Notes under the pieces: generated by a model | Told to the model about the DNA's origin: nothing | What the model saw: the letters and a program-made list of their open reading frames with translations, nothing else | The model's database searches: none | Virus record (IMG/VR): IMGVR_UViG_3300042195_000059 | Span: 1-64,000 of that record | DNA from: a virus | DNA length: 64,000 nucleotides | Strand: one strand, 5' to 3' | Shown: in pieces, positions 2,278 through 56,921 of the stretch | Layout: every line of letters starts with the position of its first letter | How positions within the stretch are numbered: position 1 is the first letter of the stretch | Position numbers and translations under genes: made by a program

Positions 2278-2682
2278 CCACTTCCTAGCTTGATCGGGAA
2301 ACAGGGCGTAGACGAAAGCATCGTCCCGCTTGAGGGGGCCGTAATAACGGCGCTGAACGCATTCGAACTTGAAGCCGAGCCGCGTGATCAGGTCACGCAT
2401 GGTCTTGTTGTCGCGCCGGGTTGATGCGGTTACTCTGATGCAACCGAGATCGACGAACAGATGTGCGTAGCAAGCGCGGATGGTGCGGCGCGTCATCGCG
2501 CCCGGCGCATAGATCGTCAGATCGGCGTTGAAGCCGTTATAGCCTCCGACAACCCAGCCGCCGACAAGTTCTCCGGCATCGTTCAATATGCCGATTGCCC
2601 CGAATGGAGGAACGATTTCCTGCCCGAGGCATGACCCGATCCATCTTCCGACTTCGGCGTCACACCCGACCAGTAACCGCAT
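2188..2682 (-). CDS. GNAT-like acetyltransferase (tentative)
   Basis: 164 aa. C-terminal ..NKTMRDLITRLGFKFEC.. resembles the GNAT acetyl-CoA region. The start overlaps the upstream stop as TGATG. The 3' end overlaps the convergent HNH gene by 90 nt. Confidence 0.4.
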   Translation of the reverse strand: MRLLVGCDAEVGRWIGSCLGQEIVPPFGAIGILNDAGELVGGWVVGGYNGFNADLTIYAPGAMTRRTIRACYAHLFVDLGCIRVTASTRRDNKTMRDLITRLGFKFECVQRRYYGPLKRDDAFVYALFPDQARKWLPLPALDVRNSGTTNTISARQISANHTIA

Positions 2683-4265
2683 CAGATAAAGGCTCCGGAC
2701 TCCATCAAGACATCAAAACCATTCACGCGCAGTGTCGGGGCCAGATCCGCGCCGCCAACTGAAAGCACGCTGACTTTGCCCCGGATCGAGGCGCAATACC
2801 CTATGCCCGCAACGGTCGTCCAGTCCGCTATCGTCCGTTCCTCTTCCGGCCATACGTCTACGTCCCATACGGCTTCATCCCACTGAGCGCCCGGCGTTAT
2901 GCTGCTGTCGGGGACGGATAGCGGGGCGTCGTCGCGAAAGTCCGTATTGAATGCGATGCCAAGCGAGACCTGCCCGTCCGTCGTCAGGATCGGGCGACAC
3001 ATGACCCAGCGTTTCAGGTTGCCGCGCTGCTCGAAATAGTTGAAAGCCGTCTTGAACTCTGCCTCGATAGCCGAACCGTCGTCGGTCCCGCCTGTGTCAG
3101 CCTCGTAGACAATCCCGGCATTGCCGCCAAAGAACAGCCTGTCCTTGAACACCTCCCAGCAATTAGCCTCCTGGCCGAGGAACCGGCACCACGCGCCAGT
3201 CACGGTGTTCATGACATATTGCTGCTGCGATGCGTTAGCGGCGGCCGGAACGTTCAATATGGCGCGTGTTCCACGTGGATAGCTGATGAGCTGCCAGCCG
3301 AAATTGTCCGCCCAGTTGCGCGCCGCCTGGTTCATGGTGGGCTGAATATTTGCCGTCAGGGAGACGCTGATCGCCGCGCCGCGCTCGATGACCAGAGCGC
3401 GGCTGATCGGCAGGACGCCGTCGATCGATATGATGACGAGATCCGCGCCAACCCGCGTAAAACACCGCATCCCGATCGGTGGCCCGATCTGGAATACGCC
3501 TTTCAGTTGCCATGTCGCAGCGCTGTCCGGATCGATGCCGGAATAAATCGCCACTTGCCCCTTGGAGGAAACGAACGCTGCATAGTCCTCCGGCCCGTCG
3601 CCGCCGTCGATCGACCATGTTCCCATCGCAACGAGATAGCCGCCCAGCGAGAACAGCTTGCCAAGATCGAAGGTTGTTGCATCCCCCTGAATGGAGTTTG
3701 TCGGAAGGTATGCGGCCTTTGTCGAATCTGCGAGAACGAACCACAGGCGGTTTTTATGCACGTTGATGTTGACGATTTCGGAACTTGTGATGCCGGTGAT
3801 CGTCGGCGTTGCCCAGCTCGTGCCGTTGTAATATCTTGGCGCATCGGCTCCATTGCACACCCAGAGGAACTTGCCGCCGGTCGTGGTGAAGTTCACATGC
3901 TGGAAGCGGGCATTCGTCAGGGACGTGACATCAGCCGATGGCGTGTCCGTCGTCACATCATAGATCGTATCGTTCGCGGCGGCAAACAATGCATCGCCAG
4001 CGGCGGTATCGCCATGATACGCCATGAGGCTTTCAACAGGCGTCGTCTCGGTCGTGTCGCTGTGCTCGATGAACCCGTTACGGGTTTCGATATAGCCCGG
4101 CTGGGGAAACCAGTTGTCGATCTGGATCGCACGATCCGGGGCCATGTTTGCAAGAGGCGATATTGAATCCCAGCCCCCGGTCGGAGGCGGGACCGATGCA
4201 CCGCGCGCGACAACACCGCCGCCGCCGGTTCGCCGCTTGCGTTGAAGAACTGCCGTCAGTCGCAT
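2682..4265 (-). CDS. Virion structural protein (tail module), 527 aa
   Basis: Start moved to internal ATG 4265-4263 (MRLTAVLQRK..), which overlaps the upstream stop as TGATG. The first 63 tracked codons lie inside the upstream gene. Confidence 0.5.
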   Translation of the reverse strand: MRLTAVLQRKRRTGGGGVVARGASVPPPTGGWDSISPLANMAPDRAIQIDNWFPQPGYIETRNGFIEHSDTTETTPVESLMAYHGDTAAGDALFAAANDTIYDVTTDTPSADVTSLTNARFQHVNFTTTGGKFLWVCNGADAPRYYNGTSWATPTITGITSSEIVNINVHKNRLWFVLADSTKAAYLPTNSIQGDATTFDLGKLFSLGGYLVAMGTWSIDGGDGPEDYAAFVSSKGQVAIYSGIDPDSAATWQLKGVFQIGPPIGMRCFTRVGADLVIISIDGVLPISRALVIERGAAISVSLTANIQPTMNQAARNWADNFGWQLISYPRGTRAILNVPAAANASQQQYVMNTVTGAWCRFLGQEANCWEVFKDRLFFGGNAGIVYEADTGGTDDGSAIEAEFKTAFNYFEQRGNLKRWVMCRPILTTDGQVSLGIAFNTDFRDDAPLSVPDSSITPGAQWDEAVWDVDVWPEEERTIADWTTVAGIGYCASIRGKVSVLSVGGADLAPTLRVNGFDVLMESGAFI

Positions 4266-5200
4266 CAGCTTGATGGCCCGGGGAAGTTGCCGTCCTGAAT
4301 GTGGCCGGTGCTGATCAGGAACGAACGGGACTGCTTGCGGGACAGGGAAAGCGTCTTCTGGCCGCCGTCTCTGGCTTTCTCGCGGTTTACCCAATCGATA
4401 TATTCCGCTTGAATATCGGCATAGGCGAAGCCCTTGATCTGCCAGAAGCGCCACTTGATGCCAAGCTGAAGCAGTCCGTCAGGGAAGACAACCTCGTCAT
4501 CGTTCGCCGTCAGCTTGTTGGCAAATGTGCCATCAGCTTTCGAAACCCAGCCGTTCGAGATATATTCCCAGACAAGGGTGCCGGGATAATCTCCTGACGC
4601 CACGGGCGGCGGCCAGATCCGGAACGCGGTCGGCCGTCTGCCGACCTGCCGCCATTTACGCCGGGGGCCGAACGGAACGATGCCGGAGCGTTGCCACTGA
4701 TCGACCTGCGGGGATTGCGGACCGACAAGCTCCCATTGAAAACGCCGATCCCAGTGGGTCTGATCGATATAACGATCAAAGTCTGTCGGGATGTCGAACG
4801 TGTCTTTGGTGAAGGTGAGATCCACCGCCGTGCCGGTTTCGTCCACCTCCTGCGTCAACGTCACCTGTGTCGAACTATCGACAGAAGCGATCCGGGTGGC
4901 TTCCTGAATGCCTTCACCCGACACCGCATAGGCTGTTGACAGCCCGGTGGTATCCGAAATCCCCGTCACGACGCGAGAGCCTGCCGTGGTATTGCCGGCA
5001 AGTTCAGTCGGCCCCCCGAACTCGATTACATATTCGGTTTGCAGACCTGTCCAGTCAACGGCTTTCATCAGTTCGTTGCCGTCGCGATTTGCGAGAGCGA
5101 CAAGCTGACGGGTTTGCAATTCCGTTGCCGTGACGGCAGAGGGGCGGACGAGACCAAGCTCGTCCGCGACCTCTTGAAGGATTTCGATGAATGTGGGCAT
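4265..5200 (-). CDS. Virion structural protein (tail module)
   Basis: 311-aa ORF in the late operon, tightly packed with its neighbours. No recognisable catalytic motif. Confidence 0.5.
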   Translation of the reverse strand: MPTFIEILQEVADELGLVRPSAVTATELQTRQLVALANRDGNELMKAVDWTGLQTEYVIEFGGPTELAGNTTAGSRVVTGISDTTGLSTAYAVSGEGIQEATRIASVDSSTQVTLTQEVDETGTAVDLTFTKDTFDIPTDFDRYIDQTHWDRRFQWELVGPQSPQVDQWQRSGIVPFGPRRKWRQVGRRPTAFRIWPPPVASGDYPGTLVWEYISNGWVSKADGTFANKLTANDDEVVFPDGLLQLGIKWRFWQIKGFAYADIQAEYIDWVNREKARDGGQKTLSLSRKQSRSFLISTGHIQDGNFPGPSS

Positions 5201-5201
5201 A

Positions 5202-5591
5202 TTAGCCGACAGTCCGCCAATTGGTAGCAGTCATCTTACGAAGGCGGATACCAGAATTTGCACTGGACCCAGCCGCAGTGATATCCAAATGCGCGTTTGC
5301 CGTCCCATTGTTGATCGTTCCGCCACTTTGTGGGAACACGCGTACAGCGTTTGAGCCGTCGAGATTGTAAACCTCGATCTCATCACCCAAGCCAGCGGCG
5401 CTAGGAAGCGTGACGGCCCCATTCGAACCCGCCGGAGTAGCCAGAACCGCTTTATTGCCGTCGCCCTTGAGAAGGCCGCCCGCGCTTCCCTGTGTGGCAG
5501 CGGTCGTCGTAACGCTGACGATAGTTACGCCAGTGCGCTTCGCCACCTCGTCCGGCACTCCAACTCCCATCAATCCACTTGCTGTCGCCAT
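5202..5591 (-). CDS. Small virion-module protein
   Basis: 129-aa G/A/T-rich ORF. The stop lies 1 nt before the next start. Confidence 0.4.
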   Translation of the reverse strand: MATASGLMGVGVPDEVAKRTGVTIVSVTTTAATQGSAGGLLKGDGNKAVLATPAGSNGAVTLPSAAGLGDEIEVYNLDGSNAVRVFPQSGGTINNGTANAHLDITAAGSSANSGIRLRKMTATNWRTVG

Positions 5592-5595
5592 AATA

Positions 5596-6219
5596 TCAAG
5601 TCTCCTCTTGCGCGCCGCGTCGGCCGCGTTTTGGTTTGTCGCTGTCCAACTCGTTTACGCGCTGCTCAAGCTTCGATACGATATCGCTCAGCTTGGCGAT
5701 TTCATTGTCCTTGGCGTCGAGCTTCGACTGAAACTCGTGGTAGTCCTTGCCTTTTTCGGCTGAATCCAGATAGCCTTGCGCCATCACCTGCCATTGCGAT
5801 GCGCCAAGTCCGAGGTTCTGCAATTGCCCAGTGCCCAGCGTCGCCAGTTGCTCGATGGTCAGCACATGCATGAACTCCAGCGTCTTGACAGCGCCGGGAT
5901 TGTGCGGGAACAGGACAGACAGCGGCGTGCCGTCGATCTTCTGCTGCTGCTTGGCTTCGAACGCCGCCCATTGCTGGGGAAAGCGTTGCTTGTCATCCGG
6001 ACGGACGCGGCGATCGCGCGTATCCTTCTCACCGGGTTGAATGATCGAGATATACGGGACCGATTCATAAATCGGGCGTCCCGCTTCCTGTGAGGCGGCC
6101 TTGCGCTGTTCCGGAAACATGTAGAATCTGGCCATCGCACGGTCCTGGAACTGAACGCGCTGGCCATTCTGGAATGACTTGTCGAAAGTCATCGGCAGGT
6201 TGGGGATTTCGGCTTCCAT
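5596..6219 (-). CDS. Hypothetical virion-module protein with C-terminal coiled coil
   Basis: 207-aa ORF in the late operon. C-terminus ..NEIAKLSDIVSKLEQRVNELD.. is heptad-like. Confidence 0.4.
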   Translation of the reverse strand: MEAEIPNLPMTFDKSFQNGQRVQFQDRAMARFYMFPEQRKAASQEAGRPIYESVPYISIIQPGEKDTRDRRVRPDDKQRFPQQWAAFEAKQQQKIDGTPLSVLFPHNPGAVKTLEFMHVLTIEQLATLGTGQLQNLGLGASQWQVMAQGYLDSAEKGKDYHEFQSKLDAKDNEIAKLSDIVSKLEQRVNELDSDKPKRGRRGAQEET

Positions 6220-6246: not shown

Positions 6247-7794
6247 TTAATTCCAGAACTCGGCCACCCACGGCAGGCGAGCCTGAACGTCCGCGTCACG
6301 CGGATTGAATTTGCCGTGGAAATTGATGATGCGAGCATGCGCGGGCAGTTTGGTGCTACTGGGATGTGCAGCTTCGAGCGTGTCCGCTTTCAGAATGTCA
6401 CGCTTGAACGACAAAACGCCATCAGCGGGCGTCCACACGGGCTGTGACGGCAGAACTTCGCTGATCCATGCCTGATCATAGCCGCTGAATTTGCCCGACG
6501 TGCGTAGCGCCAGCGCCTTCTCGGCATCAAACGTGTCGAGTACGTGCGGGAATGCTCCGGCGTTCATCTGGAAGACGGATGTGCAATACTGTCTTGGCCT
6601 GAACGGATCTCGCCAGGCCTTGAACGGCGCGTCATGATCGAATAGCGGATCAAGCTTGTTGCAGATCACAACATCCAAGTCAGTGCAGGCAAAACGAGGG
6701 CCGATGATGTCAGCCATTTCCGGCGCGAACAGTTTCAGGCGGTGCCAGTCCCGGCCATGCTCGAAATGATCGCGCCACATCGGCACGATGCGGATACTGC
6801 CGTCGATGCCTTCTGGATCGTCCGTGACGCAAACGAGTTCGCATGGCATGTCCAGCCAGCGGTCAACCATCCGCGCCCAGATATTCACGTCATTGGCATC
6901 ATAGGCGATGTGTCCCTTCCACTTGAAGGTCACGACGCGAAGCTTATCAACCGCTCTCGCAGTCGATGGTTTTGGCGGTGTAGAAACAGTCTTTTCAGCT
7001 TCCGGCGGCGTCTCCAACCGCGCCTTGATCATTGCAGGAAGCAGCCCGTCGCCGAATATCTCGATGTCGATCCCAAAGCCGCGGAACAATTCATAGCGGC
7101 CAAAAAACGTTTCCGCGTGATGCGCCATTGTCGGCGTGGCGATGTACTTGAGACCCCTGAACCGGAATTCCCGGACTTCCTCGTCAAGGTTCTGCTTCTG
7201 GGTGAAAGCGTGCTTGTCGTCGCCGCGCATCGAGCCGTCATAGCCGAACAGATGCCATATGCGATAACCCTTCGCGAGGATTGGACCGAGGCATGATTGG
7301 CCGACATTGTAGGCACCGCCGAAGATCGTGGCGCGCGGTGCCTGCTCGCGGATTGCCGCGGCCGCTCCTTCGTAATTATCGACCTGCCAGATCTCGACCT
7401 TGCGCCCCTCAAGGGCTTCGAAGATTTCCGGCTGACACTGAGAGCCGACGACATAGGTGGTATGGTCGTTCGCCTTGTCGAGAAACGACAGGTTTCCGGT
7501 TCGCGCATCGATCTGGAAATAGTAGTCCGGCACGATGCCGTGATCGATCAGGAAATTATGGCTCCCGTTCATCGAGGCAACGGAGAACCCGGCTTCCTGC
7601 CGCGCGCGGATATCGTCGATGTGATCGGCGAGCGACGGCCCGGAGGCGCAAATGCAAATGCTCTTGAATTCGACCTGCGGAAGGGGTCTGCCTGCATTCC
7701 GGCGGATGTTGTCGCACACCAGATCCGACGTTACATTGATGCCGTGAACGAATTTTGCTTCCGCCCACTTTTCTACGCCTTCGACGCTATCCAT
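6247..7794 (-). CDS. Two-domain glycosyltransferase-like protein (DUF115/MptE/Maf-like N-domain plus GT-A-like DxD C-domain)
   Basis: N-domain ICICASGPSL....GIVPDYYFQIDAR fits the DUF115 (motility accessory factor-like) pattern. The C-domain has ..ACTDLDVVICN.., which is DxD-like. Confidence 0.5.
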   Translation of the reverse strand: MDSVEGVEKWAEAKFVHGINVTSDLVCDNIRRNAGRPLPQVEFKSICICASGPSLADHIDDIRARQEAGFSVASMNGSHNFLIDHGIVPDYYFQIDARTGNLSFLDKANDHTTYVVGSQCQPEIFEALEGRKVEIWQVDNYEGAAAAIREQAPRATIFGGAYNVGQSCLGPILAKGYRIWHLFGYDGSMRGDDKHAFTQKQNLDEEVREFRFRGLKYIATPTMAHHAETFFGRYELFRGFGIDIEIFGDGLLPAMIKARLETPPEAEKTVSTPPKPSTARAVDKLRVVTFKWKGHIAYDANDVNIWARMVDRWLDMPCELVCVTDDPEGIDGSIRIVPMWRDHFEHGRDWHRLKLFAPEMADIIGPRFACTDLDVVICNKLDPLFDHDAPFKAWRDPFRPRQYCTSVFQMNAGAFPHVLDTFDAEKALALRTSGKFSGYDQAWISEVLPSQPVWTPADGVLSFKRDILKADTLEAAHPSSTKLPAHARIINFHGKFNPRDADVQARLPWVAEFWN

Positions 7795-8288
7795 ACAGTG
7801 TCCTCAAATAGCTTTTTTTCCGGGAAAAATTCATTGACGGCGGCAACCACGCTGGGGAACTTCCGCAGGTCGTAGTCGTGACCGGTGACGAACCCGCCGG
7901 GCCTGACCTTGGGGGACCATGCGGCGATGTCTTCTGCGCATTCTTCCTGCGAGTGGCCGGCATCGATGAACACGAAGTCGAGCGATGCGTCATCGACCAA
8001 ATCGGCGGCTTCGACGGAGGGTTTTTCGATCAGGCGGATTCTGTCGTCAAACGCCGCAGCCACACGCATGAACGCTGCTTTGTTGCCGTCTTGCTGCTCG
8101 CGGCTCCATTGTGTGCCCATCCACGTCAGATAGCCTTCCGGCCAGTAATCGACTGCTGTAAGGTGCAAGTTCGGAATGGCGCTGAGAAGTCCATTCGTGA
8201 AACGGCCCTCGGCAACGCCGATTTCCGCACCACTTTCCAGGCCATGCTCTTCGCACAGCCTGGAAAGAACTTCCCAGCGCCAGACCAT
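7773..8288 (-). CDS. Class I SAM-dependent methyltransferase
   Basis: AEIGVAEGRF (motif I-like), FVFIDAGHS and GGFVTGHDY resemble Methyltransf_24/O-MT family 3. Confidence 0.65.
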   Translation of the reverse strand: MVWRWEVLSRLCEEHGLESGAEIGVAEGRFTNGLLSAIPNLHLTAVDYWPEGYLTWMGTQWSREQQDGNKAAFMRVAAAFDDRIRLIEKPSVEAADLVDDASLDFVFIDAGHSQEECAEDIAAWSPKVRPGGFVTGHDYDLRKFPSVVAAVNEFFPEKKLFEDTVWIASKA

Positions 8289-8821
8289 TACGCGATAATG
8301 TTGGACGGTCTGTTGTGGACCGTGAACTGCGGATAGGTGGCAATGATCGCTGTTGCTCCACCGCCCGAGGACGCAGACGCCACGGAACGGACGCCATCCA
8401 CCAGAATCGGATCGCCAGTTGATGCAACTGCCGTCAGGACGCCAACGCTCGCAGATGTGTAAAGAGCATCGTTCGGGCCAACGGCGTCCTTGGTGAGAAC
8501 TTGCAGGCCATGACCATGTACGGCGACCCAGCCATACTGATCCGTTGCGAATGCTACTTGTGCGGCACCGAACGAATTCGCCTGCAAGGCAAGGGTGGAC
8601 GTGCAGGCCCGTGCCGTGAAGTCCTCGTCAATGCACACTGCCGCATATTGCGCCAATACACCGGACGATTTCACGAACACATAACGCTGGTCCTGCGTTG
8701 CCCGGACAGCCTGTCCGAGCGCAAACGGAAGTCCGGGGACCTCCGGATTTGTTGTGGTGTTTGGCGCGTCATAAACAGTGTCAAGCTTGACGCCAAGCTC
8801 ACCGGAGACTACGAATGCCAT
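8288..8821 (-). CDS. Putative head decoration / capsid accessory protein
   Basis: 177-aa ORF immediately downstream of the capsid gene. Assignment rests on position only. Confidence 0.35.
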   Translation of the reverse strand: MAFVVSGELGVKLDTVYDAPNTTTNPEVPGLPFALGQAVRATQDQRYVFVKSSGVLAQYAAVCIDEDFTARACTSTLALQANSFGAAQVAFATDQYGWVAVHGHGLQVLTKDAVGPNDALYTSASVGVLTAVASTGDPILVDGVRSVASASSGGGATAIIATYPQFTVHNRPSNIIA

Positions 8822-8839: not shown

Positions 8840-9865
8840 TTAGTCGTTGGTCAGAATGCCGTGGAACAGCATGCCTGATGCGGTCATGTTGCCTGCCCAC
8901 CCGATAAGTCTTATCATCGCATCTTGGTTCACCGAGAAGCGATCCGGATCGAGCGGGACCATGTTCCGCTGCGAATGGGGACGCCAATACAGGTAATCGG
9001 AGTTGATGAAGAACATCGTGCCCGATGGAGCGCCGCCAACCGCGCCGACGCCAGCAGCGCCGAAGGTGTTGCCGTCGTTCACCGAACCCTGGAACCCGCC
9101 GTCGAGAACCACATCCGCATCCATGAACTTCACGGACATGAATCCGGCCTTGGCCATGTCGCTCTTTTCGTCCGTGATGCGCGCGATCGCGTGCAGCGAA
9201 CGATTGTAGACTGACCATGCGGTATTGTCGGCGAGGATCAGGTCAACCCGATCCGGGCCGCGCATGGTGTTGGTCCACATGTTGAGCATGTACTCATAGA
9301 TGTTCGACGGGCTGAGAGCCGCGCCGCCATCGGTGACTGCCCGGTAGGCATAGTTCTGCCAGAACTCCCAAGCAGAACGGTCGATGCCGCCAACGGTACC
9401 GGTAGTCGGAGAAGCATCGATCAGGGCCTGCAGGCCGGTGATCTGTCCCGTAAGGGAGCCGTCCGAATAGGCATCGTAGGCAAGACCGTTGCGGAAGGTA
9501 CGCTCCGCATTCTCGACACGGCTTCCAAGCAGGTCGATGATCGCCTCGCGCCCGGAGTTCTGGAGAAGCTCCAGACCCGAGATGGAGACGGCCACGGCTG
9601 CCTGACGGATGGGATATTCTGCCGCCGTGAAGACATCCGAAGGCTGGATGTTGAGCAGCTCATATCCGCTGTAACGCGAATAGGTGCTGTTATTGGCGTA
9701 TTCGATTTCCTGAACGATCGTGCGACCGCCAGAAAAAGGCTTCTGCTTGCCACGCGCTGACAGCCGGGTCAGGACTGCGTTATTGCGGGTGACAGAATCC
9801 GCTAATTTGCCACTACGGTTCCGAAGTGTGGTAGTGACAATTTCGCTCAGATTGGGAGACACCAT
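8840..9865 (-). CDS. Major capsid protein
   Basis: 341 aa, directly downstream of the scaffold-like gene. N-terminus MVSPNLSEIVTTTLRNRSGKLADSV..FSGGRTIVQEIEY is typical of podovirus-type HK97-fold capsid proteins as I recall them. Confidence 0.7.
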   Translation of the reverse strand: MVSPNLSEIVTTTLRNRSGKLADSVTRNNAVLTRLSARGKQKPFSGGRTIVQEIEYANNSTYSRYSGYELLNIQPSDVFTAAEYPIRQAAVAVSISGLELLQNSGREAIIDLLGSRVENAERTFRNGLAYDAYSDGSLTGQITGLQALIDASPTTGTVGGIDRSAWEFWQNYAYRAVTDGGAALSPSNIYEYMLNMWTNTMRGPDRVDLILADNTAWSVYNRSLHAIARITDEKSDMAKAGFMSVKFMDADVVLDGGFQGSVNDGNTFGAAGVGAVGGAPSGTMFFINSDYLYWRPHSQRNMVPLDPDRFSVNQDAMIRLIGWAGNMTASGMLFHGILTND

Positions 9866-9899: not shown

Positions 9900-11126
9900 T
9901 TAAGAGTGGGCGTCCCAGGCGGCGAGAAGATCATCACGCACGGTGCCCTTCGAATTGACAGGCGCTGATACCTGTCCGGAAGGTGCTCCTCTGACCGAAA
10001 CCGATGCGCGCTTGGCGGCTTCGGACTTGGCGCGTTTTTCTTCTGCTAGCCTGTCGGCCTGGGTCTTGCTCTCTTCATTGGTTTTGCGGAGGCGGTCGTT
10101 GATGAGCGCCTCGCGAACCTCCGGGTGGAGGTAGCAAGCCTGTTCGTATGCTTTGGCAAGATCGGTCCGGAAGTCTCCGGTGCGTTCGATCACGCCGGTC
10201 GTAAACAGACGGTTGATCGTCTCTTCGACATCGGAAAAGTAGCGGTACTCAACTGACGATTTGAGTTCGTCGATAACCTTCTGAGCTTGCGAGATCTGGC
10301 GTTCTTGATCCGCCTCCTGCCTGCTTTGAAAGGTGCTTTCGAGAGTGCTCAGTTTCTGCGTCAATGGGTTCAGAGCGGATTGAAGCGCCCTGTTGACGGC
10401 ATCTCTTACATAGGGGTCGTCATACTCGTCCTGACCCGCTGGGGCCGCGCCATTTGTCTGCCCGTTCTGATGGGGCTGGGAGGCTGGCGCTGCGCCTCCA
10501 AACATCTGCTGAAGCTGCTGCCTGCTGATGCCTGCGTTCTGGGCGATCGCGAGCAGTCCGCGCATGGGGTCCTGATTAAGAAGATTTTCAAAGCCGACAT
10601 AGTTTTTCAACGCGGCTTCCAGCGTCGTGCCGGAATTCTTCGCCATCTCGGCATATTGGTCAATGCCCTTGTAGTCTCTCAGCTTGGCGAAGCCGTTATT
10701 GACCTCCTGCTCACGCTTGATAATATCGGCGCGGATATGAGACGGGAGCTGCTCCCACTCGGATTTTGACTTGATCGACCACCCCGGAGGCGGTGCGCCT
10801 TCTGCCTCTGCCGCCAGCGGCTCAGGCTCTTCCTGTGGCGGCTGCTCTTCCGTGGCTGGCTTGTCGGGTGCGGGTTCAGCCTTCGGCTCTTCCTCGCGCT
10901 CCCATTGCGCCCTGACATCTTCTTCCGTAGCTTCGGGAGCGGTTTCCGCCGCTTTGCGAAAGCGGCCTCTTTCATCACGGGCGCGGCTGTCTGTTGGCTC
11001 GGGCGCCGCAACATCCGTTGCAGGCGCGTCACTGTCCGTCCAGCTGTCGAATGCTGCCTCGAGATCGGCGCGCACGGAAGTGTCTTCGGTGGGCGTTGAT
11101 GTCGCCTCCGTCAGGTCGTCTTGCAT
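9900..11126 (-). CDS. Scaffolding protein
   Basis: 408 aa, very acidic with a low-complexity N-half (E/P/A-rich) and a helical C-half. Located between portal-side genes and the capsid gene. Confidence 0.6.
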   Translation of the reverse strand: MQDDLTEATSTPTEDTSVRADLEAAFDSWTDSDAPATDVAAPEPTDSRARDERGRFRKAAETAPEATEEDVRAQWEREEEPKAEPAPDKPATEEQPPQEEPEPLAAEAEGAPPPGWSIKSKSEWEQLPSHIRADIIKREQEVNNGFAKLRDYKGIDQYAEMAKNSGTTLEAALKNYVGFENLLNQDPMRGLLAIAQNAGISRQQLQQMFGGAAPASQPHQNGQTNGAAPAGQDEYDDPYVRDAVNRALQSALNPLTQKLSTLESTFQSRQEADQERQISQAQKVIDELKSSVEYRYFSDVEETINRLFTTGVIERTGDFRTDLAKAYEQACYLHPEVREALINDRLRKTNEESKTQADRLAEEKRAKSEAAKRASVSVRGAPSGQVSAPVNSKGTVRDDLLAAWDAHS

Positions 11127-11175: not shown

Positions 11176-12300
11176 TCATCTGAACCTTACTATCTGCTGG
11201 TCGTCTGGAACGTCCTGCGTTTCCCACGGGGGAGTGGCGCGGCGGTCTTCAGCGCTGAACTTGCGGCGTCTCTGGACGTTGCGGGCTTCGGTTTCGCCAG
11301 CAAGACGGCGATACGCGTCATGCGGATCTGCTGCGGCGCGCAAATTGTTCTCGATAACGAAATCAAAATCGCCGGTCACAGGATCGTAACCATCAGGATT
11401 TTTCCTTGCGCGTTCAAGCGCCTCCTGAAGGGTCTCCCTTGATGGGAATTGCATTGGGCTTCCACCGGGCGCAAAACCTTCTCGCCCTTGCACATTATGC
11501 TGAAGCTCGTGCAGGCCGATGCTCCTTGCGTCGTTCGGGTCAGTCCCTTCTACCAACATATAAGGCCACTTCTCATCGTGCCAATACGCGCCTTTCGGCT
11601 CCAAATCCGGCCCGTAGCTTCCGTACATGTCGGGGACATCGCCGTAAGCGGCAGAATATTCGGGATGATCAAGCCCCGTGAACTTGCCGGACTTGCTTGT
11701 CTGGAACATACCGGCTTTATCCGGAGTGACGCCGCTGAGCTGCGCGGCGCTGTCGTCGATCTCGAACTTCCACTTGCCATCGACGCCTTGCATCCATCCG
11801 GTGTCGCGCCAGATGTCATCACGTGACGCGCCGGAGGATGCCATTTCCTGAGCTTGCGCGAGCGCCTGCTGGTCCGCAGTTTTCGCTGTCGGTCCTGCAA
11901 AGATAGTCGTGGTGCTTCGCGGATCATCCGGATACACAGAGTCCAGCAGCCGGTTGAACCCTTCCGGCAAATTCCGGTCCATCCATGCAGCACCGCGTTT
12001 CGTGCCTCTGGCGACGATGCCAGCGCCGGGGATTGCGCCGACAAGCGCTGTCGCTAAATCACCGTAGTTTGAAGCGGCTTGCCCGTAATCGCCGCGCAAA
12101 AGTGCATCACCTCCCTGTCCGGAGGATTTCCACGCATCATAGAGGGACATCGCCTCGCCGGAGCCGGGAGCCATCCCGAGACCAAATTCAGCGGCTGGAA
12201 TCAGGTTGCGCCATGTCGCTTCCGGCGATATGCCTTGGCCATACGCGAAGATATCGTCAGGCGAGCCTAGCGCCAGATTACGGGCCGTTTGGCTTGGCAT
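11176..12300 (-). CDS. Head-module protein with HExxH zinc-metalloprotease-like motif
   Basis: The motif IGLHELQHNVQGREGF is present. Located between portal and scaffold. Confidence 0.4.
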   Translation of the reverse strand: MPSQTARNLALGSPDDIFAYGQGISPEATWRNLIPAAEFGLGMAPGSGEAMSLYDAWKSSGQGGDALLRGDYGQAASNYGDLATALVGAIPGAGIVARGTKRGAAWMDRNLPEGFNRLLDSVYPDDPRSTTTIFAGPTAKTADQQALAQAQEMASSGASRDDIWRDTGWMQGVDGKWKFEIDDSAAQLSGVTPDKAGMFQTSKSGKFTGLDHPEYSAAYGDVPDMYGSYGPDLEPKGAYWHDEKWPYMLVEGTDPNDARSIGLHELQHNVQGREGFAPGGSPMQFPSRETLQEALERARKNPDGYDPVTGDFDFVIENNLRAAADPHDAYRRLAGETEARNVQRRRKFSAEDRRATPPWETQDVPDDQQIVRFR

Positions 12301-12782: not shown

Positions 12783-12986
12783 TCATCCGTTATAGCCTCT
12801 CGCCTCTGCCGCCTGCCGCATCATGAGCCATTCCTCGTTCGATGGGTGATAGGCGTTGAAATAACGATCCGTCTCCCATTCGAATTGCCATTTGTTGGGG
12901 TCGAATTCGATGAGCTTCTTGTCAGCCGAAGACATGGCGTCGTACTCGGCGCGGGTGATGTGTTGGGCGTCTTGCCAGTTGGTCAT
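12783..12986 (-). CDS. Hypothetical protein
   Basis: 67-aa ORF. The start overlaps the portal stop by 4 nt. Confidence 0.4.
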   Translation of the reverse strand: MTNWQDAQHITRAEYDAMSSADKKLIEFDPNKWQFEWETDRYFNAYHPSNEEWLMMRQAAEARGYNG

Positions 12987-15568
12987 TTGCTCGCACTCTT
13001 CCCTGCTGCATTCGCCTTGGCTTTCATCGCCTGCTCTGCAATGGTGGCCTTGCGTTCATCGGACTGCGCCTGACGCTCGGCGGAGCGATCATCATACTGC
13101 GCCTGGCGTTCTTGCGCCTCGGCATCGTAAGCGGCTTTCATCTGCATGTTCTGTGACTGAATCTGCAGTTTTTGACCTTCCATTGCAACATTCGCCTGGA
13201 GTTTTTCCATCTCCATTTGATGTTTCAGCATTTCGATCTGGGTTTTGCGGACCATCTCAGCCATTTTCATCTCGTATTCTTTTTCTTTGAACTGCATTTC
13301 CATTTGGCTGAGCTGGGCTTGCCGTTGGTCTTCAGCTTGCTGGCGCTGCGCTTCCGCCTGCATTTCTTGCTGACGGGCTTGCATCTCCATCTGCATCTTC
13401 TCGGCTTCGGCCTTCGCCTTGATCTCTTCCGGAGATGGCTGCGGAGGCTTGGGCTGCTTGGCGTCTTTTTCGAGGGCGTCTAAAGTTTCCTCGAAGCTGG
13501 TCTCCAACTCGCGCCCGGCGCGGAAGCCACGGACACCGAACAGAAGCATTTTGCCGAGCAGCGGGCGAAGCTCCGGCGCGGCCATCCCGATTTCGAGCGC
13601 CTGTCCGAGGAACCCGCTTGCCGCCGTCAGGAACTCGACGCGCGACTGCTTTTCGCTCTCGGGGTCAGGATCGATCGTCGAATCCGTCTCGATGTCAATC
13701 CTGAAGCCGCGCAGCTTGTCATTGCGCAGAAGCTCGACGGCGGCAGCGAAATCCGCCATTGCTTTTTCCCGGACCGCAACCATAGGATCGACGGGCGGCG
13801 GCATCTGGATCGGCGTACCGCCTTGCGGCAGGGGCGGAGCCATTGGAAGCATGCCCTGCTGTGGCGGCATCGGTCCGGGCTGTGGCCCTTGCGGAGGCAT
13901 CGCGCCTTGCGGCGGCATGGGAGGCGCACCGGCTGGCATCTCCGGGCCGCCTTGCATCGGAGGTGGCCCCTGCATTGGAGGCTGTGGCGGCCCTTGTGGC
14001 GGCATCTGGGGACCGCCCATCGGTGGCCCGCCATTGTGGCCCATCATCGGAGGCGGTGCAGGCTGCTCCGGCATATCCGGCGGCAGATGGTCCTCGATAC
14101 CCCATTGCTCATAGCTTGACATCAGGAAGATCGTCTCCGGCGAGAAATGCTCGGCGATGATCTCCGCCATGATGATCAGCGTGTCACGCGTGAACCGGCT
14201 CAACTCGGCCTGACGGTCCTGCAGGCGCAGATTGGCGAACTGCCCCTTGATGCGCTGCTCGGTCGCGGTCTTTGCCGACCCGCTCGACATGCCCCGCACA
14301 ATATCGGATATGCCGGTGATCTCGTAAAGATCGTTCTTGACCTGCTGGCGGGCTTCGTAAAGACGGATAAGGACTTCCGCCATTTCCTTGATCGGAAGGA
14401 ACGAGACGCCGCCGGGAATGCCGCCCTTTTCGGACAACGCTGCCCAGTTGTCGCACGGATAGAGTTTGTTCTCGTCGCCGTCTTCCAGAAGCCTGCGAAG
14501 CTCGGGGATGCTGGCGTCATACACGCCGGCCGCCCTGATGGCATCCGTCAGTAGCGAAATCCGTGTCGTCAGGTCGTCAAGCTCTTGCGCCTGATCCTTG
14601 TACTGGTGATAATCAGGTACGGGAACGACGCTGTTTGTCGTCACCGTGGATACACATGCGTCAGGCGTTGGCCAGAAGCAATGCAGCTTCAGCGGATCGT
14701 CAACCACTTCAAGCGGCTGCTCGGTCCAGGATTCAGCCAGGAAGATGACCTTACGGCTTTCCTTGTCCCATATTTCCCAGACGGTGGCCTTCTTCAGCAG
14801 CTCGTTTTCAGGCTTGGAGGCTTCGCTTGCATCCATTCCCGCCGGGCAGTGATCGAGCGGGATGGACTGAAGCTGCTGTTTCGTCAGCTTGCTGAAGCGC
14901 TTCTTCAGTTGATCCCGCGACAGGAATGCACGCTTGGCCTTCCATGTGATTTCATCTTCGACACGAGCCGGAGAGCATAGATAGTCTTCCCAATGCACGT
15001 AATCAACGCAGGTCTTTTCGCTGATGACGGCGGGATCATAGCTTTCTTCCGCAGCCATTGCCTCATCAGGCTGAGGTTGCGCCGCCTCGCCGCCTTCCGA
15101 GAGGGAAAGCTTGTCGTCAATCCCTTCGTACTCTGGCTCGTAGCGTATCCAGTTGACGCCCTGCCCGGTCAGCAGGTAATCGTCACGGCAAAGCTTGACC
15201 GTCTTGTGAAAATAGCCGACTTCGATCTGGTAGGCCAGCGTCCGTTCCAGCAATCGACAAGCAATGCGTCCGATAGGATCGCGGTCGCGGTAGCGGCGCT
15301 CGACGATCGGCTGTGGCGCTTTGGAATAGACCGCCGGCCCGAGCGTCTGGACATTCGACCACAGGACATTGAACCGGCAGTTCGTGTCCTTCTCGCCGCG
15401 CTCGTCACGATAGCGCTTGATGATCTTGCGGCAATCCTTGACCCAGGTCTTGCGCTCTTTCTGAGCAAGAGCAATCTCGGTCTTCCAGCGGCGGGCCATA
15501 GACTCCGGCGTGCTGCCGAAGTCTGCAATGCTCTCTACGGAGCGCGTATCGGCAGCGGTTTCAGCCAT
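12983..15568 (-). CDS. Portal protein with P/G/M/Q-rich insertion and Q/E/M-rich C-terminal coil
   Basis: 861 aa, second gene after TerL. Size and position are typical of a portal. See findings for the low-complexity segments. Confidence 0.7.
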   Translation of the reverse strand: MAETAADTRSVESIADFGSTPESMARRWKTEIALAQKERKTWVKDCRKIIKRYRDERGEKDTNCRFNVLWSNVQTLGPAVYSKAPQPIVERRYRDRDPIGRIACRLLERTLAYQIEVGYFHKTVKLCRDDYLLTGQGVNWIRYEPEYEGIDDKLSLSEGGEAAQPQPDEAMAAEESYDPAVISEKTCVDYVHWEDYLCSPARVEDEITWKAKRAFLSRDQLKKRFSKLTKQQLQSIPLDHCPAGMDASEASKPENELLKKATVWEIWDKESRKVIFLAESWTEQPLEVVDDPLKLHCFWPTPDACVSTVTTNSVVPVPDYHQYKDQAQELDDLTTRISLLTDAIRAAGVYDASIPELRRLLEDGDENKLYPCDNWAALSEKGGIPGGVSFLPIKEMAEVLIRLYEARQQVKNDLYEITGISDIVRGMSSGSAKTATEQRIKGQFANLRLQDRQAELSRFTRDTLIIMAEIIAEHFSPETIFLMSSYEQWGIEDHLPPDMPEQPAPPPMMGHNGGPPMGGPQMPPQGPPQPPMQGPPPMQGGPEMPAGAPPMPPQGAMPPQGPQPGPMPPQQGMLPMAPPLPQGGTPIQMPPPVDPMVAVREKAMADFAAAVELLRNDKLRGFRIDIETDSTIDPDPESEKQSRVEFLTAASGFLGQALEIGMAAPELRPLLGKMLLFGVRGFRAGRELETSFEETLDALEKDAKQPKPPQPSPEEIKAKAEAEKMQMEMQARQQEMQAEAQRQQAEDQRQAQLSQMEMQFKEKEYEMKMAEMVRKTQIEMLKHQMEMEKLQANVAMEGQKLQIQSQNMQMKAAYDAEAQERQAQYDDRSAERQAQSDERKATIAEQAMKAKANAAGKSASK

Positions 15569-15888
15569 TAGGAAGCGTTACCGTGGCCGGCGTAGCCAGC
15601 GGTGACGTACACCGGACTTGCATCAGTGCCCACGCTCTCAATCGAGACATGCGTCGCACCAGCGGGCACCATGAAAAACGCGCGTTCGCCCGCCGCCACC
15701 GTCACGTGAGTAGGCCCGGCCTCAACTGTCGAAGCCCCAAAGGCAATGAAAATCCCCTCTGAACTGGTGTTCAGAACGCATACAACAATTGCATTGCTCC
15801 CACTAGGTCTTGGCAGAACATCCGTGTCATGAGTTGCGCCTGATGTAAGCTCAACGCTGTTCGCAGCCTGCTGAAAGACTATTCCCAT
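15568..15888 (-). CDS. Hypothetical protein between TerL and portal
   Basis: 106-aa ORF with start/stop overlaps on both sides. Confidence 0.4.
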   Translation of the reverse strand: MGIVFQQAANSVELTSGATHDTDVLPRPSGSNAIVVCVLNTSSEGIFIAFGASTVEAGPTHVTVAAGERAFFMVPAGATHVSIESVGTDASPVYVTAGYAGHGNAS

Positions 15889-17249
15889 TATGATCTCCTG
15901 CGAGCCTTGCGCTCATGCTGAGCCCATAGGTCTTCGAGTGTAACTTGGTTGGGTGGCGGGTTAGGGCCGATCTGGAGGACGCGGCCGCGTTCCGGTGCTT
16001 CAGGCGCTTTAGATGCGAGCATCACCTGACAGCCGTAGGAGAACCCGTCACTCGGATGGCTTGCCCAATTATGCTTTGGCTCTTTCATGAAAACCTGAAG
16101 GTCTGGGTTCCACTCGTATTCCCAGGCTCTCAAGCCATCGAGGCCGCGCTCACAGTTGGTCTCATGAAACTCACACTTGCGGATAACTGTACGAGCTGCG
16201 TTGATACGGTCAGACTTGGTGGCGACTGGAACGATCGCGACCTTGTCGCCACCAAACGCTGACAGGAACTGCTCAAGCGCAGTGTGCTTGCTCTGAAAAG
16301 TCTTGTTTCTGGCATCGTGCGGCAAGTAGATTTTGCCCAGATTCGTCCAGCCACGCATTGTCAGGCGTTCTTGCAGACGCGGAATCCACTCCTGCGCCTC
16401 TAGGCCGCTGTCCTCGTCATAGTCGAGCAGGCCGAAACCGCCAATGCGGCGTTGCCAGAACCACCATGAAGCCGTGTCACGAAAACCGATGTCGCTACTG
16501 ATCTCGATCGGAGCACCGTTTGGCTCGTACTCGACGTGATCACCAATGCGACCTTCCTTCTCGGCGTTGCCGACCCATCTACCGAGGATCGCGCCTGCCT
16601 GAAGGCCATAGCCGCCTTCCCAGACGTGTTCCGCCGCATCGGGGTCGGTGGCGAAATCGTGGTCTCGCTCCTTGCGAAGCACTTCGGGAAACCATGGATT
16701 GTCCCGCCAGTTGACCTGTACGCTTACTGCATCAGGATGCGGGTTTTTACGGAAGAACATGTCCACCGCGTCGGTGCGGTTTCGAGGGTTCCAGCCAAAC
16801 CACAGCTCGGAGCCTTCTTTACGTATCGTCGGCCGAAGCAATTCCAGCGACATGGCCGAAAGTGTTTGCGCTTCTTCAACCCAGGCGATGTCATACGCTT
16901 CAAGCGACTTAATGCTGTCTGCGTTGTAAGACTGCATGCCGCGAAAGATGATCAGCGAGCCGTTCTTGCCTCTGATCTCATTATCGAGAACGTCGAAGTG
17001 TCCAACAAGATCAAGTTTGCGGATCTTATCGACGAGGAGCTGCCTAACGCTGTCCCGGATGGTGTTCTGAACTTCGCGAATGCAGACGATGCGGGTAGGC
17101 TTGGCGTAGCAGCGTATGATTGCCTGCTCGGCAAAGAAGTGTGACTTGGCCCCGCCTCTACCGCCATATGCGCCTTTGTATCGTGCTGGCTTTAAAAGTG
17201 GTGCCAGCGCACGAGGGACATCAACCCTCAGAAGCGTTGTCGATGACAC
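15888..17249 (-). CDS. terL: Terminase large subunit (PBSX/Terminase_6-like)
   Basis: Walker A-like YGGRGGAKSHFF near the N-terminus. IAWVEEAQ Walker B-like. 453 aa. Confidence 0.9.
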   Translation of the reverse strand: MSSTTLLRVDVPRALAPLLKPARYKGAYGGRGGAKSHFFAEQAIIRCYAKPTRIVCIREVQNTIRDSVRQLLVDKIRKLDLVGHFDVLDNEIRGKNGSLIIFRGMQSYNADSIKSLEAYDIAWVEEAQTLSAMSLELLRPTIRKEGSELWFGWNPRNRTDAVDMFFRKNPHPDAVSVQVNWRDNPWFPEVLRKERDHDFATDPDAAEHVWEGGYGLQAGAILGRWVGNAEKEGRIGDHVEYEPNGAPIEISSDIGFRDTASWWFWQRRIGGFGLLDYDEDSGLEAQEWIPRLQERLTMRGWTNLGKIYLPHDARNKTFQSKHTALEQFLSAFGGDKVAIVPVATKSDRINAARTVIRKCEFHETNCERGLDGLRAWEYEWNPDLQVFMKEPKHNWASHPSDGFSYGCQVMLASKAPEAPERGRVLQIGPNPPPNQVTLEDLWAQHERKARRRS

Positions 17250-31765: not shown

Positions 31766-32335
31766 TCAAGCAGCCGCTTGATTGAATTTCCCTGTTTCGT
31801 CGCCCCATGAGTCCCAGCCGGTACGATCCGTGCGACTGAACAGCTCGACGCGCCAAGCATCCGGCAGATAGCGTTCTGCCCATGCGTAAGCTTCGTCCGG
31901 TTTGCGTGAGTGCTCTCTGACAAGTCCCTCGATGACGTTGCGCTCTGATCGCGAATTGATCGGATTGCCGATGAAGCCCAGAAGGAAGGGTTCGGAGGCG
32001 GAGCGCACGCGGTAGCCGGTGCCGAACGCCGTCTTGCCGTTCACGGTCTTCTTGTGCCAAACGCCGCCGGTTTTATAGTCGAAGCCCCAAGCGCTCATGA
32101 CTTCGAACGCCTTGTCGAGCATGGGCCATGTCGCCCAGAGAAAGAGGCAGCAGTCGCCAGATGCGAGTTGTGAAACCGGAAGCGCTTTGATAGCCTCAAG
32201 ATCCATGCAATCGTAATGGTGCTTGGCGTTTTTCTTCTCGCCCTTGACGCTCCAGTTCATGAAGTTCCAAGGCGGGTCGGCGACAATCATTCCGTATGTG
32301 AGCGGGCGCAAGGGCGCGAAGGGCCAGTCTGTCAT
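31766..32335 (-). CDS. MT-A70 family N6-adenine DNA methyltransferase
   Basis: Start moved to ATG 32335 (MTDWPF..), an ATGA overlap. Catalytic IVADPPWNF motif. Confidence 0.8.
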   Translation of the reverse strand: MTDWPFAPLRPLTYGMIVADPPWNFMNWSVKGEKKNAKHHYDCMDLEAIKALPVSQLASGDCCLFLWATWPMLDKAFEVMSAWGFDYKTGGVWHKKTVNGKTAFGTGYRVRSASEPFLLGFIGNPINSRSERNVIEGLVREHSRKPDEAYAWAERYLPDAWRVELFSRTDRTGWDSWGDETGKFNQAAA

Positions 32336-32481
32336 ACGACCTCCCCACGCTTGGCGAATCTCGTCTTCGCGTAACGAGCGCATACAGGCTTACGTGACTT
32401 GACCTTGGCCTCATCGCGTTCGACTTTGACTTTTCCGTCACTGTCGATTTTGAGTTTGAAAATGTCGCCGAGCTTGGTCAT
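32332..32481 (-). CDS. Small hypothetical protein (49 aa)
   Basis: ATG 32481 (MTKLGDIFKLKID..) has ATGA overlaps at both ends. Confidence 0.35.
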   Translation of the reverse strand: MTKLGDIFKLKIDSDGKVKVERDEAKVKSRKPVCARYAKTRFAKRGEVV

Positions 32482-56730: not shown

Positions 56731-56921
56731 ATTTGTTTGCTGCTTGCTTTCTGGCGGATGTTTTGTAGAGTTTGTTGCCGCGTTTTTAAAGCGCTGCAAC
56801 GTGCAATTTGCATCTATTTTTATGGGCAAGTGATTTGTTGGTTTTATTGAAAAAGAGCTTACCATTTTACAGTGCGTGCGCCATGAACTGTGGGGTCAAG
56901 CTTCCCTTGGACACTAAGATC

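Follow-up and report, generated by a model that had tools for sequence, protein, structure and literature searches.

The head module of a temperate, Mx8-like podovirus carries a cassette of about 2 kb, wedged between its capsid/decoration and head-tail genes, which encodes a methyltransferase and a 515-aa protein that joins a Maf-like domain to a GT-A glycosyltransferase domain. On balance, we favour the reading that this cassette O-glycosylates the neighbouring p177, a probable decoration protein, with a host-supplied CMP-ulosonic acid that would be extended and methylated. Glycosylation of the capsid or of a decoration protein, possibly with a methylated sugar, had been suggested in an earlier note on this DNA; it stands as the best-supported interpretation of the locus on account of the conserved gene order, the fused domains and the way in which p177 varies with the cassette, and it is still one that we infer, the acceptor being narrowed by correlation.

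The window, a stretch of 64,000 nucleotides from a viral record (IMGVR_UViG_3300042195_000059, positions 1 to 64,000), holds these genes on its minus strand in the order scaffold gene (9900-11126), major capsid protein (MCP; 8840-9865; phrog_9953, E 3e-103), p177 (177 aa; 8288-8821), methyltransferase (MTase, 171 aa; 7773-8288), the 515-aa ORF (6247-7794), p207 (207 aa; 5596-6219), a Ser/Thr/Gly-rich ORF of 129 aa (5202-5591), an SU10-type adaptor (4265-5200) and a nozzle-like gene (2682-4454). Assigned to the Mx8 p50 family through phrog_20268 and synteny, p207 lies directly downstream of the cassette and forms the distal edge of its insertion site. The TAA stop codon of p177 and the ATG of the MTase have the A at 8288 in common (TAATG). 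Between the MTase and the 515-aa ORF the overlap is longer, 22 nt (7773-7794), and GAGGA stands 6 nt ahead of the ATG of the 515-aa ORF at 7794. The overlaps from which the earlier note had argued for co-expression with the capsid are real and its argument was correct: packed in this manner among its late-operon neighbours, the cassette is predicted to be expressed together with the head genes. No promoter or terminator of the cassette's own lies beside it, although the promoter scan relied on the sigma-70 consensus, a poor guide in a host of this sort.

The Maf-like domain occupies approximately residues 20-262 of the 515-aa protein and is followed by a linker (263-284). It matches PF01973 (MptE-like, formerly DUF115/MAF_flag10) over residues 43-187 (E 1.8e-17 and 64.1 bits, where the cut-off is 34.6). 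In a comparison of profiles with the PDB, its best solved relative is the Maf structure 5MU5, residues 40-199 aligning with 272-429 of that protein (E 2.8e-8) in a match that spans the conserved G-x-D...H...Q segment (G184-x-D186, H195 and Q199). The GPSL motif (G52 P53 S54 L55) and D96 of 'QIDAR' are invariant among 54 homologues. The protein is predicted to be soluble, with no transmembrane segment and a maximum KD of 1.12, and its AlphaFold2 model reached a pLDDT of 90. When the full-length model was searched against the PDB with Foldseek, GT-A structures took all 50 of the matches listed, and the assignment of the N-domain therefore rests on sequence profiles together with its structural neighbours in BFVD, which carry the automatic name MptE-like.

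Maf enzymes O-glycosylate Ser/Thr residues from CMP-Pse, CMP-Leg, CMP-Neu5Ac or CMP-Kdo (PMC11339370; bioRxiv 10.1101/2020.06.03.131540), and they are built of an N-terminal Rossmann-like domain, a central domain and a C-terminal helical, flagellin/chaperone-like domain (PMC11339370). The 515-aa protein has the PF01973/Maf_flag10 catalytic domain in common with the motility accessory factors, flagellin nonulosonic-acid O-glycosyltransferases, of Magnetospirillum magneticum (5MU5), C. botulinum and G. kaustophilus and keeps their GxGPS loop and G-x-D...H...Q segment. By analogy, the expected chemistry would be the same: in the cytoplasm, ahead of assembly, a CMP-ulosonic acid would be transferred to Ser/Thr of a surface protein that is abundant and assembles itself. 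Unlike Maf, however, it begins its PF01973 domain near residue 20, continues with a GT8-like GT-A domain in place of the Maf N- and C-terminal domains, and has no helical C-terminal domain; in relatives, MTase or sulfotransferase domains stand in its place. Its gene belongs to a phage head module, between capsid/decoration and head-tail genes, and not to a flagellin glycosylation island. Since the terminal domains of Maf and the flagellar context are both absent, the enzyme is not a Maf proper.

The C-domain (residues 285-515) was modelled as a GT-A fold of GT8/GT6-like type with pLDDT above 90 over most of its length. Its sole sequence match is phrog_1962 'glycosyltransferase' (E 6e-17); neither Pfam GT8 (PF01501, Glyco_transf_8) nor any other Pfam or NCBIfam family was matched, nor any glycosyltransferase of the PDB in the profile comparison. 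The closest folds are the retaining GT8/GT6 enzymes LgtC (1G9R), glycogenin (1LL0/3QVB) and the ABO transferases (Foldseek prob 1.0, E around 3e-8), with a target-normalised TM of about 0.5 at 9-17% identity, and the BFVD matches are named GT family 8. A DxD motif (D372-L-D374) and H493 (in 'FHGKFNP') are conserved in at least 90% of the 54 homologues, a DxD and a late histidine that resemble the Mn-binding triad of GT8. With respect to CAZy GT8, the domain thus has the fold but no sequence-level membership. Glycogenin is a case of a GT-A fold that acts on protein.

The MTase matches PF13578 (Methyltransf_24; E 1.8e-19 and 71 bits, where the cut-off is 26.3), and 11 relatives share E22-x-G24-V-x-x-G28 and D109-A-x-H112 without exception. 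The best PDB matches of its family profile are 6G7D (E 2.6e-5), which we take to be a mycobacterial sugar 1-O-methyltransferase, and the O-methyltransferases 3NTV and Rv1220c. Judged from these profiles the enzyme is of the O-methyltransferase type, which suggests a sugar hydroxyl as methyl acceptor; it has no membrane segment. In several relatives (P0013 and P0014; loci L006, L021, L023 and others) the MTase is fused in-frame to the Maf-like protein. The earlier note had named a class I SAM methyltransferase, a DUF115 N-domain and a C-domain with the look of a DxD nucleotide-sugar transferase. All three names hold, and, of the checks that it had put forward, the profile search and, for the C-domain, the structure prediction came out in its favour: by their scores, the domain matches lie well above chance and are not motif coincidences.

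In the Mx8-like podovirus lineage the order MCP, p177, cassette, p207, adaptor, nozzle and the position of the cassette are kept in about 50 diverged phages, relatives in the same slot being only 28-37% identical. The cassette gene typically starts 540-620 bp past the MCP, and a member of the p177 family follows the MCP in 48 of the approximately 50 cassette-bearing loci. A genome scan gave 12 loci in total, among them prophages with this same order in Caulobacter sp. UC70_42 and in a Magnetospirillum MAG. As an accessory element, the cassette is present in 19 of the 66 loci that were selected by their MCP, a distribution that takes about 18 gains or losses. These loci come from a scan with an alignment of six MCP sequences, nine being too diverse; a p177-based scan gave only 8 loci, which were left out of the statistics. 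Among relatives the domain orders Maf-GT, GT-Maf, GT-Maf-MTase and MTase-Maf-GT occur, and Methyltransf_23/25 and Sulfotransfer_3 are further partners fused to the Maf-like domain; by profile assignment, all of its fusion partners are glycan-building or glycan-tailoring domains.

The comparison with Mx8 and Mx9 places the insertion. Their head module (p48 MCP, p49, p50, p51, p52, p53 GNAT) has the same structural gene order as the window, which holds homologues of MCP (44-46%), p49 (p177), p50 (p207), adaptor, nozzle and GNAT. In Mx8 and Mx9, p50 follows p49 directly, whereas the window has the MTase and Maf-GT genes there. The MCP is 54% identical to that of Bradyrhizobium phage ppBjS10J-1 and 44% to that of Mx8.

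The best candidate for the acceptor, and the most likely target, is p177. It matches Mx8 p49, annotated as 'virion structural protein' (HMM E 2.5e-31), and also Mx9 p82, and the C-terminal half is rich in Ser, Thr, Ala and Gly. Its AlphaFold2 model is poor (pLDDT 50), and the Foldseek matches in the PDB, non-significant with a best E of 0.24, are mostly decoration proteins; together with the Mx8 annotation they make p177 a probable capsid decoration protein. The presence or absence of the cassette can be explained with 7 changes on the tree of p177 but takes 18 on that of the MCP; with matched taxa, p177 requires 5-8 changes, and p207, adaptor, nozzle and MCP require 11-15. In 26 out of 30 matched pairs, it is the member with the cassette whose p177 has the higher Ser+Thr content (Wilcoxon p 3e-5), and that of the MCP does not differ (14/30 pairs, p 0.63). 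These tests were run on UPGMA trees and on pairs with some dependence among them, and there is physical linkage between p177 and the cassette. At the p177 alignment column of window residue 151, Ser/Thr accounts for 77% with and 5% without the cassette; it was rejected as a cassette-specific site because the region aligns poorly. Many cassette-free relatives carry the same p177 family, so that p177 does not need the enzyme.

We therefore word the course of the reaction as a proposal, of which the protein target, p177 as acceptor, the donor sugars, the order of the steps and the benefit are all part. Late in infection the soluble 515-aa enzyme would work in the cytoplasm on a head protein, most likely p177. 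Its Maf-like domain would move a CMP-ulosonic acid made by the host (pseudaminic acid, legionaminic acid or Kdo) onto Ser/Thr, the GT8-like GT-A domain would then attach a hexose from a UDP-sugar, and the Methyltransf_24 enzyme would O-methylate the glycan. The outcome might be a capsid under a methylated acidic glycan with altered surface properties, be it recognition, adhesion or stability. A Pfam scan of 40 window ORFs, small ORFs left out, revealed no sugar-nucleotide pathway, flagellar or NulO genes, and the donor sugar is for this reason a guess.

The same chemistry might be directed at another virion component, such as the MCP, the 129-aa protein, tail fibres or several of these, with p177 a mere neighbour. 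In the cited accounts of mycobacteriophages, as far as they describe them, the acceptors are capsid and tail-tube subunits (PMC12619734, PMC11600133), the 129-aa ORF is likewise rich in Ser/Thr, and the MCP lies one gene away from the cassette in nearly all loci. However, its Ser/Thr content is unaffected by the cassette and its tree tracks the cassette much worse than the p177 tree does, while the 129-aa ORF, with tblastn matches in L003 and L005 only, lacks conservation among the loci that bear the cassette; we regard a different virion target as rather unlikely. Alternatively, the cassette might be a moron, serving lysogenic conversion or host takeover, that modifies LPS, capsule, flagellin or another surface protein of the host, for instance against superinfection, and that sits in the head module merely because the p177/p207 junction tolerates insertions. 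The phage is temperate (integrase at 46329-47468), the cassette is frequently gained and lost, and serotype-changing phage glycosyltransferases are well known (PMC12619734, in a passage citing Markine-Goriaynoff 2004). The slot moreover takes unrelated cargo, a holin and endolysin in BUCT555 and small ORFs with GapR in L005, so that position alone is no proof of a head target. Yet the genes overlap late genes, and the scan described above gave them no separate promoter- or terminator-like signal, which makes expression in the lysogen unlikely; both proteins are free of membrane segments, in contrast to the Gtr-type modifiers of O antigen; unrelated head modules show this position again; and a host-directed function does not predict the co-variation of p177 with the cassette. 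Modification of the host surface thus appears quite unlikely.

Two further possibilities concern the substrate class itself. The MTase and the transferase might build a hypermodified, glycosylated base during packaging, a view in keeping with the PHROG label of the MTase family (phrog_2675, 'DNA methyltransferase') and with the existence of DNA-hypermodifying phage glycosyltransferases (bioRxiv 10.1101/2023.12.21.572611). It is very improbable, considering that the MTase is without the DPPY/NPPY and PCQ motifs of DNA methyltransferases and that its nearest solved relatives are O-methyltransferases, that no 5hmC, TET or dU-hydroxymethylase partner lies nearby, and that the early region of the phage encodes a distinct DNA methyltransferase (MT-A70) as well as a DndC-like protein; in addition, the characterised Maf-type enzymes act on Ser/Thr of proteins, and sulfotransferase fusions fit glycans rather than DNA. 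The N-domain might also be a pyrophosphokinase of the MptE type or another nucleotide-dependent small-molecule enzyme, which would make the gene an auxiliary metabolic one: PF01973 is named MptE-like and also covers the pterin pyrophosphokinase MptE, whose structure 8SD5 is the second PDB match of the domain (E 7e-5). That match, however, extends over residues 7-90 only, against 40-199 including the G-x-D...H...Q segment for Maf, the domains to which it is fused are of the GT-A, MTase and sulfotransferase kinds, and no folate or pterin genes are found in the neighbourhood, so that we give this assignment hardly any credence.

Glycosylation of virions by phages is in itself already known, to our knowledge with a demonstration essentially only in mycobacteriophages, where it shields the particles from antibodies; the new element is the Maf-like enzyme with its GT-A fusion in a head module. 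In the passages that cite Freeman et al. (2023), virion glycosylation is described for Che8, Corndog and Myrna (PMC11600133, PMC12363180, PMC12619734), and phage glycosyltransferases together with an O-methyltransferase (cluster O) are said to modify capsid and tail-tube subunits (PMC11600133, PMC12619734). Both systems have a phage-encoded glycosyltransferase and an O-methyltransferase-type gene of accessory nature, that of the mycobacteriophages altering recognition of the virion surface according to these passages. The mycobacteriophages are siphoviruses and myoviruses of Actinobacteria, whereas the cassette phages are Mx8-like podoviruses. As cited, the mycobacteriophage enzymes are conventional glycosyltransferases, no Maf-like domain being reported in those passages, and their acceptors include the C-terminus of the MCP; the core enzyme of the cassette is Maf-like, its candidate acceptor is a probable decoration protein and its predicted sugar an acidic ulosonic acid.

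If glycosylation of p177 by the cassette is true, virion glycosylation would reach podoviruses of Gram-negative bacteria by a different enzyme class and with an acidic, sialic-acid-like sugar, capsids being 'sialylated' from host CMP-sugar pools, and it would be common in environmental viromes. This would bear on phage surface chemistry (mucus or particle adhesion, immune recognition, stability) and on the use of host nucleotide-sugar pools by phages. Maf-type enzymes have already been explored for protein glyco-engineering, and this field would gain a useful tool in a Maf core that is compact, does not depend on flagellin, has its tailoring domains built in and acts on a small, defined acceptor. 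The proposal also offers a testable function for hundreds of 'MptE-like' hypothetical phage proteins.

The earlier note had called a Maf-like enzyme in this role unusual. This holds for the literature, in which no description of such an enzyme in a phage head module was found, but the gene is not a single-genome rarity, as 526 stretches in IMG/VR encode relatives. Among cultured phages, a tblastn search of 50,697 phage records found homologues of the C-domain only and no full-length fusion. Tentatively, a Maf-derived core that has dispensed with its flagellin-binding domain and acquired tailoring domains might have been re-targeted in a large unrecognised class of phage head modules, so as to decorate a capsid decoration protein with ulosonic acids that resemble sialic acid and are methylated or sulfated. 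The extent behind this broader reading is about 30% of the Mx8-like podovirus lineage, the IMG/VR stretches mentioned above and analogues in other lineages. In one of the latter (L070) a Maf-like gene and a methyltransferase adjoin a head protein, and in Tetraselmis viridis virus S20 the genes between the HK97 MCP and the head-closure gene form an island of glycosyltransferases and methyltransferases, one ORF of which has a weak, sub-threshold match to PF01973.

In the late operon of this phage, a methyltransferase (MTase) gene (171 aa; 7773-8288) and a 515-aa ORF (6247-7794) form a two-gene cassette among the structural genes, on the same minus strand. The operon runs from the terminase (15888-17249) over the 861-aa portal (12983-15568), a 374-aa protein (11176-12300), the scaffold (9900-11126) and the major capsid protein (MCP; 8840-9865; phrog_9953, E 3e-103) to p177, a 177-aa ORF (8288-8821). 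The cassette follows, and after it p207 (207 aa), a 129-aa ORF, the SU10-type adaptor (4265-5200), a nozzle-like gene (2682-4454), a GNAT acetyltransferase (2188-2682) and an S74-chaperone fibre (401-1342). The tight packing described in the earlier note was confirmed: one base, at 8288, belongs both to the p177 stop codon and to the MTase start codon (TAATG), and the two cassette ORFs overlap by 22 nt (7773-7794), with a GAGGA Shine-Dalgarno sequence 6 nt 5' of the second start. No promoter-like or terminator-like site was found between the cassette and the capsid genes. The window as a whole corresponds to approximately one genome, whose ends join each other in comparison with a second contig (L003), and the integrase (46329-47468) marks a temperate phage.

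The domain assignments proposed for the 515-aa protein from the sequence alone held on profile search. Residues 43-187 match PF01973 (MptE-like, formerly DUF115/MAF_flag10) at 64 bits (gathering score 34.6), and the last 220 residues give a match to PHROG 1962 ('glycosyltransferase'). Structure prediction, likewise suggested in the earlier note, was done with AlphaFold2 from 54 homologues and gave a model (mean pLDDT 90) with two compact domains, the PF01973-type N-domain and a GT-A-like C-domain, separated by a disordered linker (263-284). The N-domain family profile matches the Magnetospirillum flagellin glycosyltransferase Maf (5MU5; E 2.8e-8) over residues 40-199, an alignment that takes in the conserved G-x-D...H...Q segment. 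The Maf domain is a modified GT-A fold related to the GT42 sialyltransferase Cst-II, and Maf enzymes transfer CMP-activated pseudaminic, legionaminic or neuraminic acid or Kdo to flagellin Ser/Thr (PMC11339370; bioRxiv 10.1101/2020.06.03.131540). In a Foldseek search against the PDB, the C-domain groups at E about 3e-8 and prob 1.0 with the retaining GT-A enzymes LgtC (1G9R), glycogenin and the ABO transferases. Its predicted DxD is present as D372-L-D374, which together with H493 is at least 90% conserved, as would fit a metal site of the GT8 type. The C-domain is not matched by any Pfam GT model and is therefore GT8-like by fold rather than a demonstrated GT8 member. The smaller gene is indeed a methyltransferase (Methyltransf_24, E 1.8e-19), and neither enzyme has a membrane segment.

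The nearest cultured relatives by MCP, Bradyrhizobium phage ppBjS10J-1, Stenotrophomonas phage BUCT555 and Mx8/Mx9, have the entire structural gene order in common with the window; however, their p49-like/p50-like gap is empty or holds other cargo where the window has the cassette. The cassette is real, widespread and uncharacterised. We found about 50 full-length metagenomic homologues of the 515-aa fusion, several with a methyltransferase fused in-frame, and a pattern scan identified 526 IMG/VR stretches encoding relatives. Database relatives bear only the automatic name 'MptE-like', and our literature search turned up no publication that describes a PF01973 enzyme within the head module of a phage. 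Among the 80 best loci, those with the window's MCP family always show the order MCP, p177 homologue, Maf-like gene, p207, adaptor, nozzle; a p177 homologue is present in 48 of about 50 of them, and the start of the Maf-like gene typically lies 540-620 bp after the MCP gene. Architectures were counted by tblastn with the window's domains in 82 loci (80 from IMG/VR plus L003-L007, less three without a containing ORF). GT-Maf (12), GT-Maf-MTase (7), Maf-GT (5) and MTase-Maf-GT (1) fusions were found, and in 57 loci Maf stood with no detected window-type GT or MTase domain. Fusions to Methyltransf_23, 25 and 11, seen by Pfam among 55 members, belong to this last class.

The same gene order (MCP, p177, GT-Maf(-MTase), p207) occurs in prophages of Caulobacter sp. 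UC70_42 (L092, NZ_CP171994.1) and a Magnetospirillum MAG (L093), prophages or contigs with identifiable hosts, the former in the complete genome of an isolate. Flagellin glycosylation in both genera draws on nonulosonic acids of their own making, which would supply the donor. An analogous, larger cassette is found in an isolated siphovirus, Tetraselmis viridis virus S20 (L192, NC_020840.1, 2122-7705), as an island of roughly 5.5 kb bounded by an HK97 MCP (plus a 188-aa ORF) and a head-closure gene; it encodes GT-D, an ORF annotated 'sialyltransferase' with a weak, sub-threshold MptE-like match, Methyltransf_23, an FkbM methyltransferase, GT2 and a protein homologous to the C-domain of the window's 515-aa enzyme. 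The Pfam survey of 55 members also gave two sulfotransferase (PF13469)-Maf fusions, L070 7347-8822 and L063 7359-8843, in IMG/VR stretches of a lineage other than the window's. In L070 a capsid-type protein (phrog_1645) is followed by a methyltransferase and then the fusion; a separate methyltransferase also precedes the L063 fusion, near which lies a radical-SAM gene. About 20 marine loci similar to L031, L035, L038 and L055, and these four themselves (GC about 40%), carry a stand-alone 279-aa Maf-like protein; their phage type has no detectable relation to the window lineage, and neither Pfam nor PHROG gives a match for the neighbours of this protein (351 and 194 aa).

By enzyme, bacterial Maf is the nearest known system, but the phage protein keeps only the catalytic core and lacks Maf's N- and C-terminal domains. 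Since two defining Maf features, this architecture and the flagellar context, are absent from the cassette, we call it Maf-like and not Maf. By function, the nearest system is virion glycosylation in mycobacteriophages, where, according to PMC11600133, PMC12363180 and PMC12619734 (all citing Freeman 2023), glycosyltransferases, and in cluster O an O-methyltransferase, modify capsid and tail-tube proteins. For the window we infer the steps, donors and benefit of a mechanism in which the soluble cassette enzymes would work late in infection on freshly synthesised head protein in the cytoplasm. First, Ser/Thr of the decoration protein would receive, through O-linkage by the Maf-like domain, a CMP-ulosonic acid that the host has made; a hexose would be added by the GT8-like domain, and the glycan would be capped by the methyltransferase. 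That the Maf domain can act first, and by itself, is implied by relatives having just Maf and a methyltransferase.

The candidate acceptor is p177, which has no Pfam or PHROG match. An HMM from its relatives matches Mx8 p49 (E 2.5e-31), annotated as a 'virion structural protein', and Mx9 p82. The AF2 model of p177 is of poor quality (pLDDT 50), and the non-significant Foldseek matches are mostly to capsid decoration proteins (HFTV1, phi29 gp8.5 base, lambda gpD/SHP); with moderate confidence we regard p177 as a decoration-type head protein. Alternatively, the acceptor might be another virion protein, and here the variable presence of the cassette is informative. It is found in 19 of 66 loci of an MCP-selected sample, and a UPGMA tree of 117 distinct MCPs calls for at least 19 changes in its presence. 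For a common set of 102 taxa, 18 changes are needed with the MCP tree and 7 with the p177 tree, where about 32 would be expected at random, and on matched taxa 14 for p207, 14 for the adaptor and 11 for the nozzle versus 5-8 for p177. As p207, which adjoins the cassette downstream, tracks it worse than p177 does, simple adjacency does not explain the association. Moreover, p177 homologues contain 21% Ser+Thr with the cassette versus 17% without (Mann-Whitney p 2e-6), and in nearest cassette-plus/cassette-minus pairs the content is higher with the cassette in 26 of 30 (Wilcoxon p 3e-5), with no trend for MCP in the same pairs (14/30, p 0.63), all of these tests being approximate, with distance trees, only partly independent pairs and a p177 linked to the cassette. 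These data point to p177, rather than MCP, as the cassette's partner. The most serious rival is a host-directed moron, because the p177/p207 junction takes unrelated cargo too.

Two further readings concern the enzymes themselves. Against DNA hypermodification, no DNA-methyltransferase motif was found in the cassette MTase, whose family profile matches 6G7D first (E 2.6e-5) and then O-methyltransferases. The phage has a separate DNA methyltransferase of MT-A70 type in its early region (31766-32383); with an adjoining PAPS-reductase/DndC-like protein (32478-33509; both on the minus strand) it forms a possible DNA-modification pair. A pterin kinase activity would draw on the N-domain profile match to archaeal MptE, which covers residues 7-90 only (E 7e-5).

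Several other genes of the window deserve mention. The GNAT slot after the nozzle-like gene, an enzyme inside the structural operon, is kept throughout the lineage (Mx8 p53, BUCT555, ppBjS10J-1). In the portal, a long low-complexity stretch rich in Pro, Gln, Met and Gly precedes a repeat-like C-terminal extension rich in Gln, Glu, Met and Lys. The 374-aa protein between portal and scaffold, with an LPD23 domain and a HELQH motif, is possibly an ejected protein or one of polyvalent type. The sole long plus-strand ORF within the structural region (1114-2277, between the fibre and GNAT genes), of which the gene caller of the second contig calls just a 171-aa piece, shows several helix-turn-helix-like segments in repetition, is rich in Cys and His in its N-terminal part, and looks like a homing-endonuclease-type insertion. 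The phage also encodes an outer-membrane beta-barrel protein (PF13505; 30759-31694, minus strand), likely a moron. Finally, a second glycosyltransferase, of GT4/GT-B type (55657-56865, minus strand; PF13692, PF00534), sits in the tail-fibre region, flanked by a collagen-repeat protein and an Mtd-like protein (54214-55641, 57546-58814), and possibly serves a separate fibre-glycosylation function.
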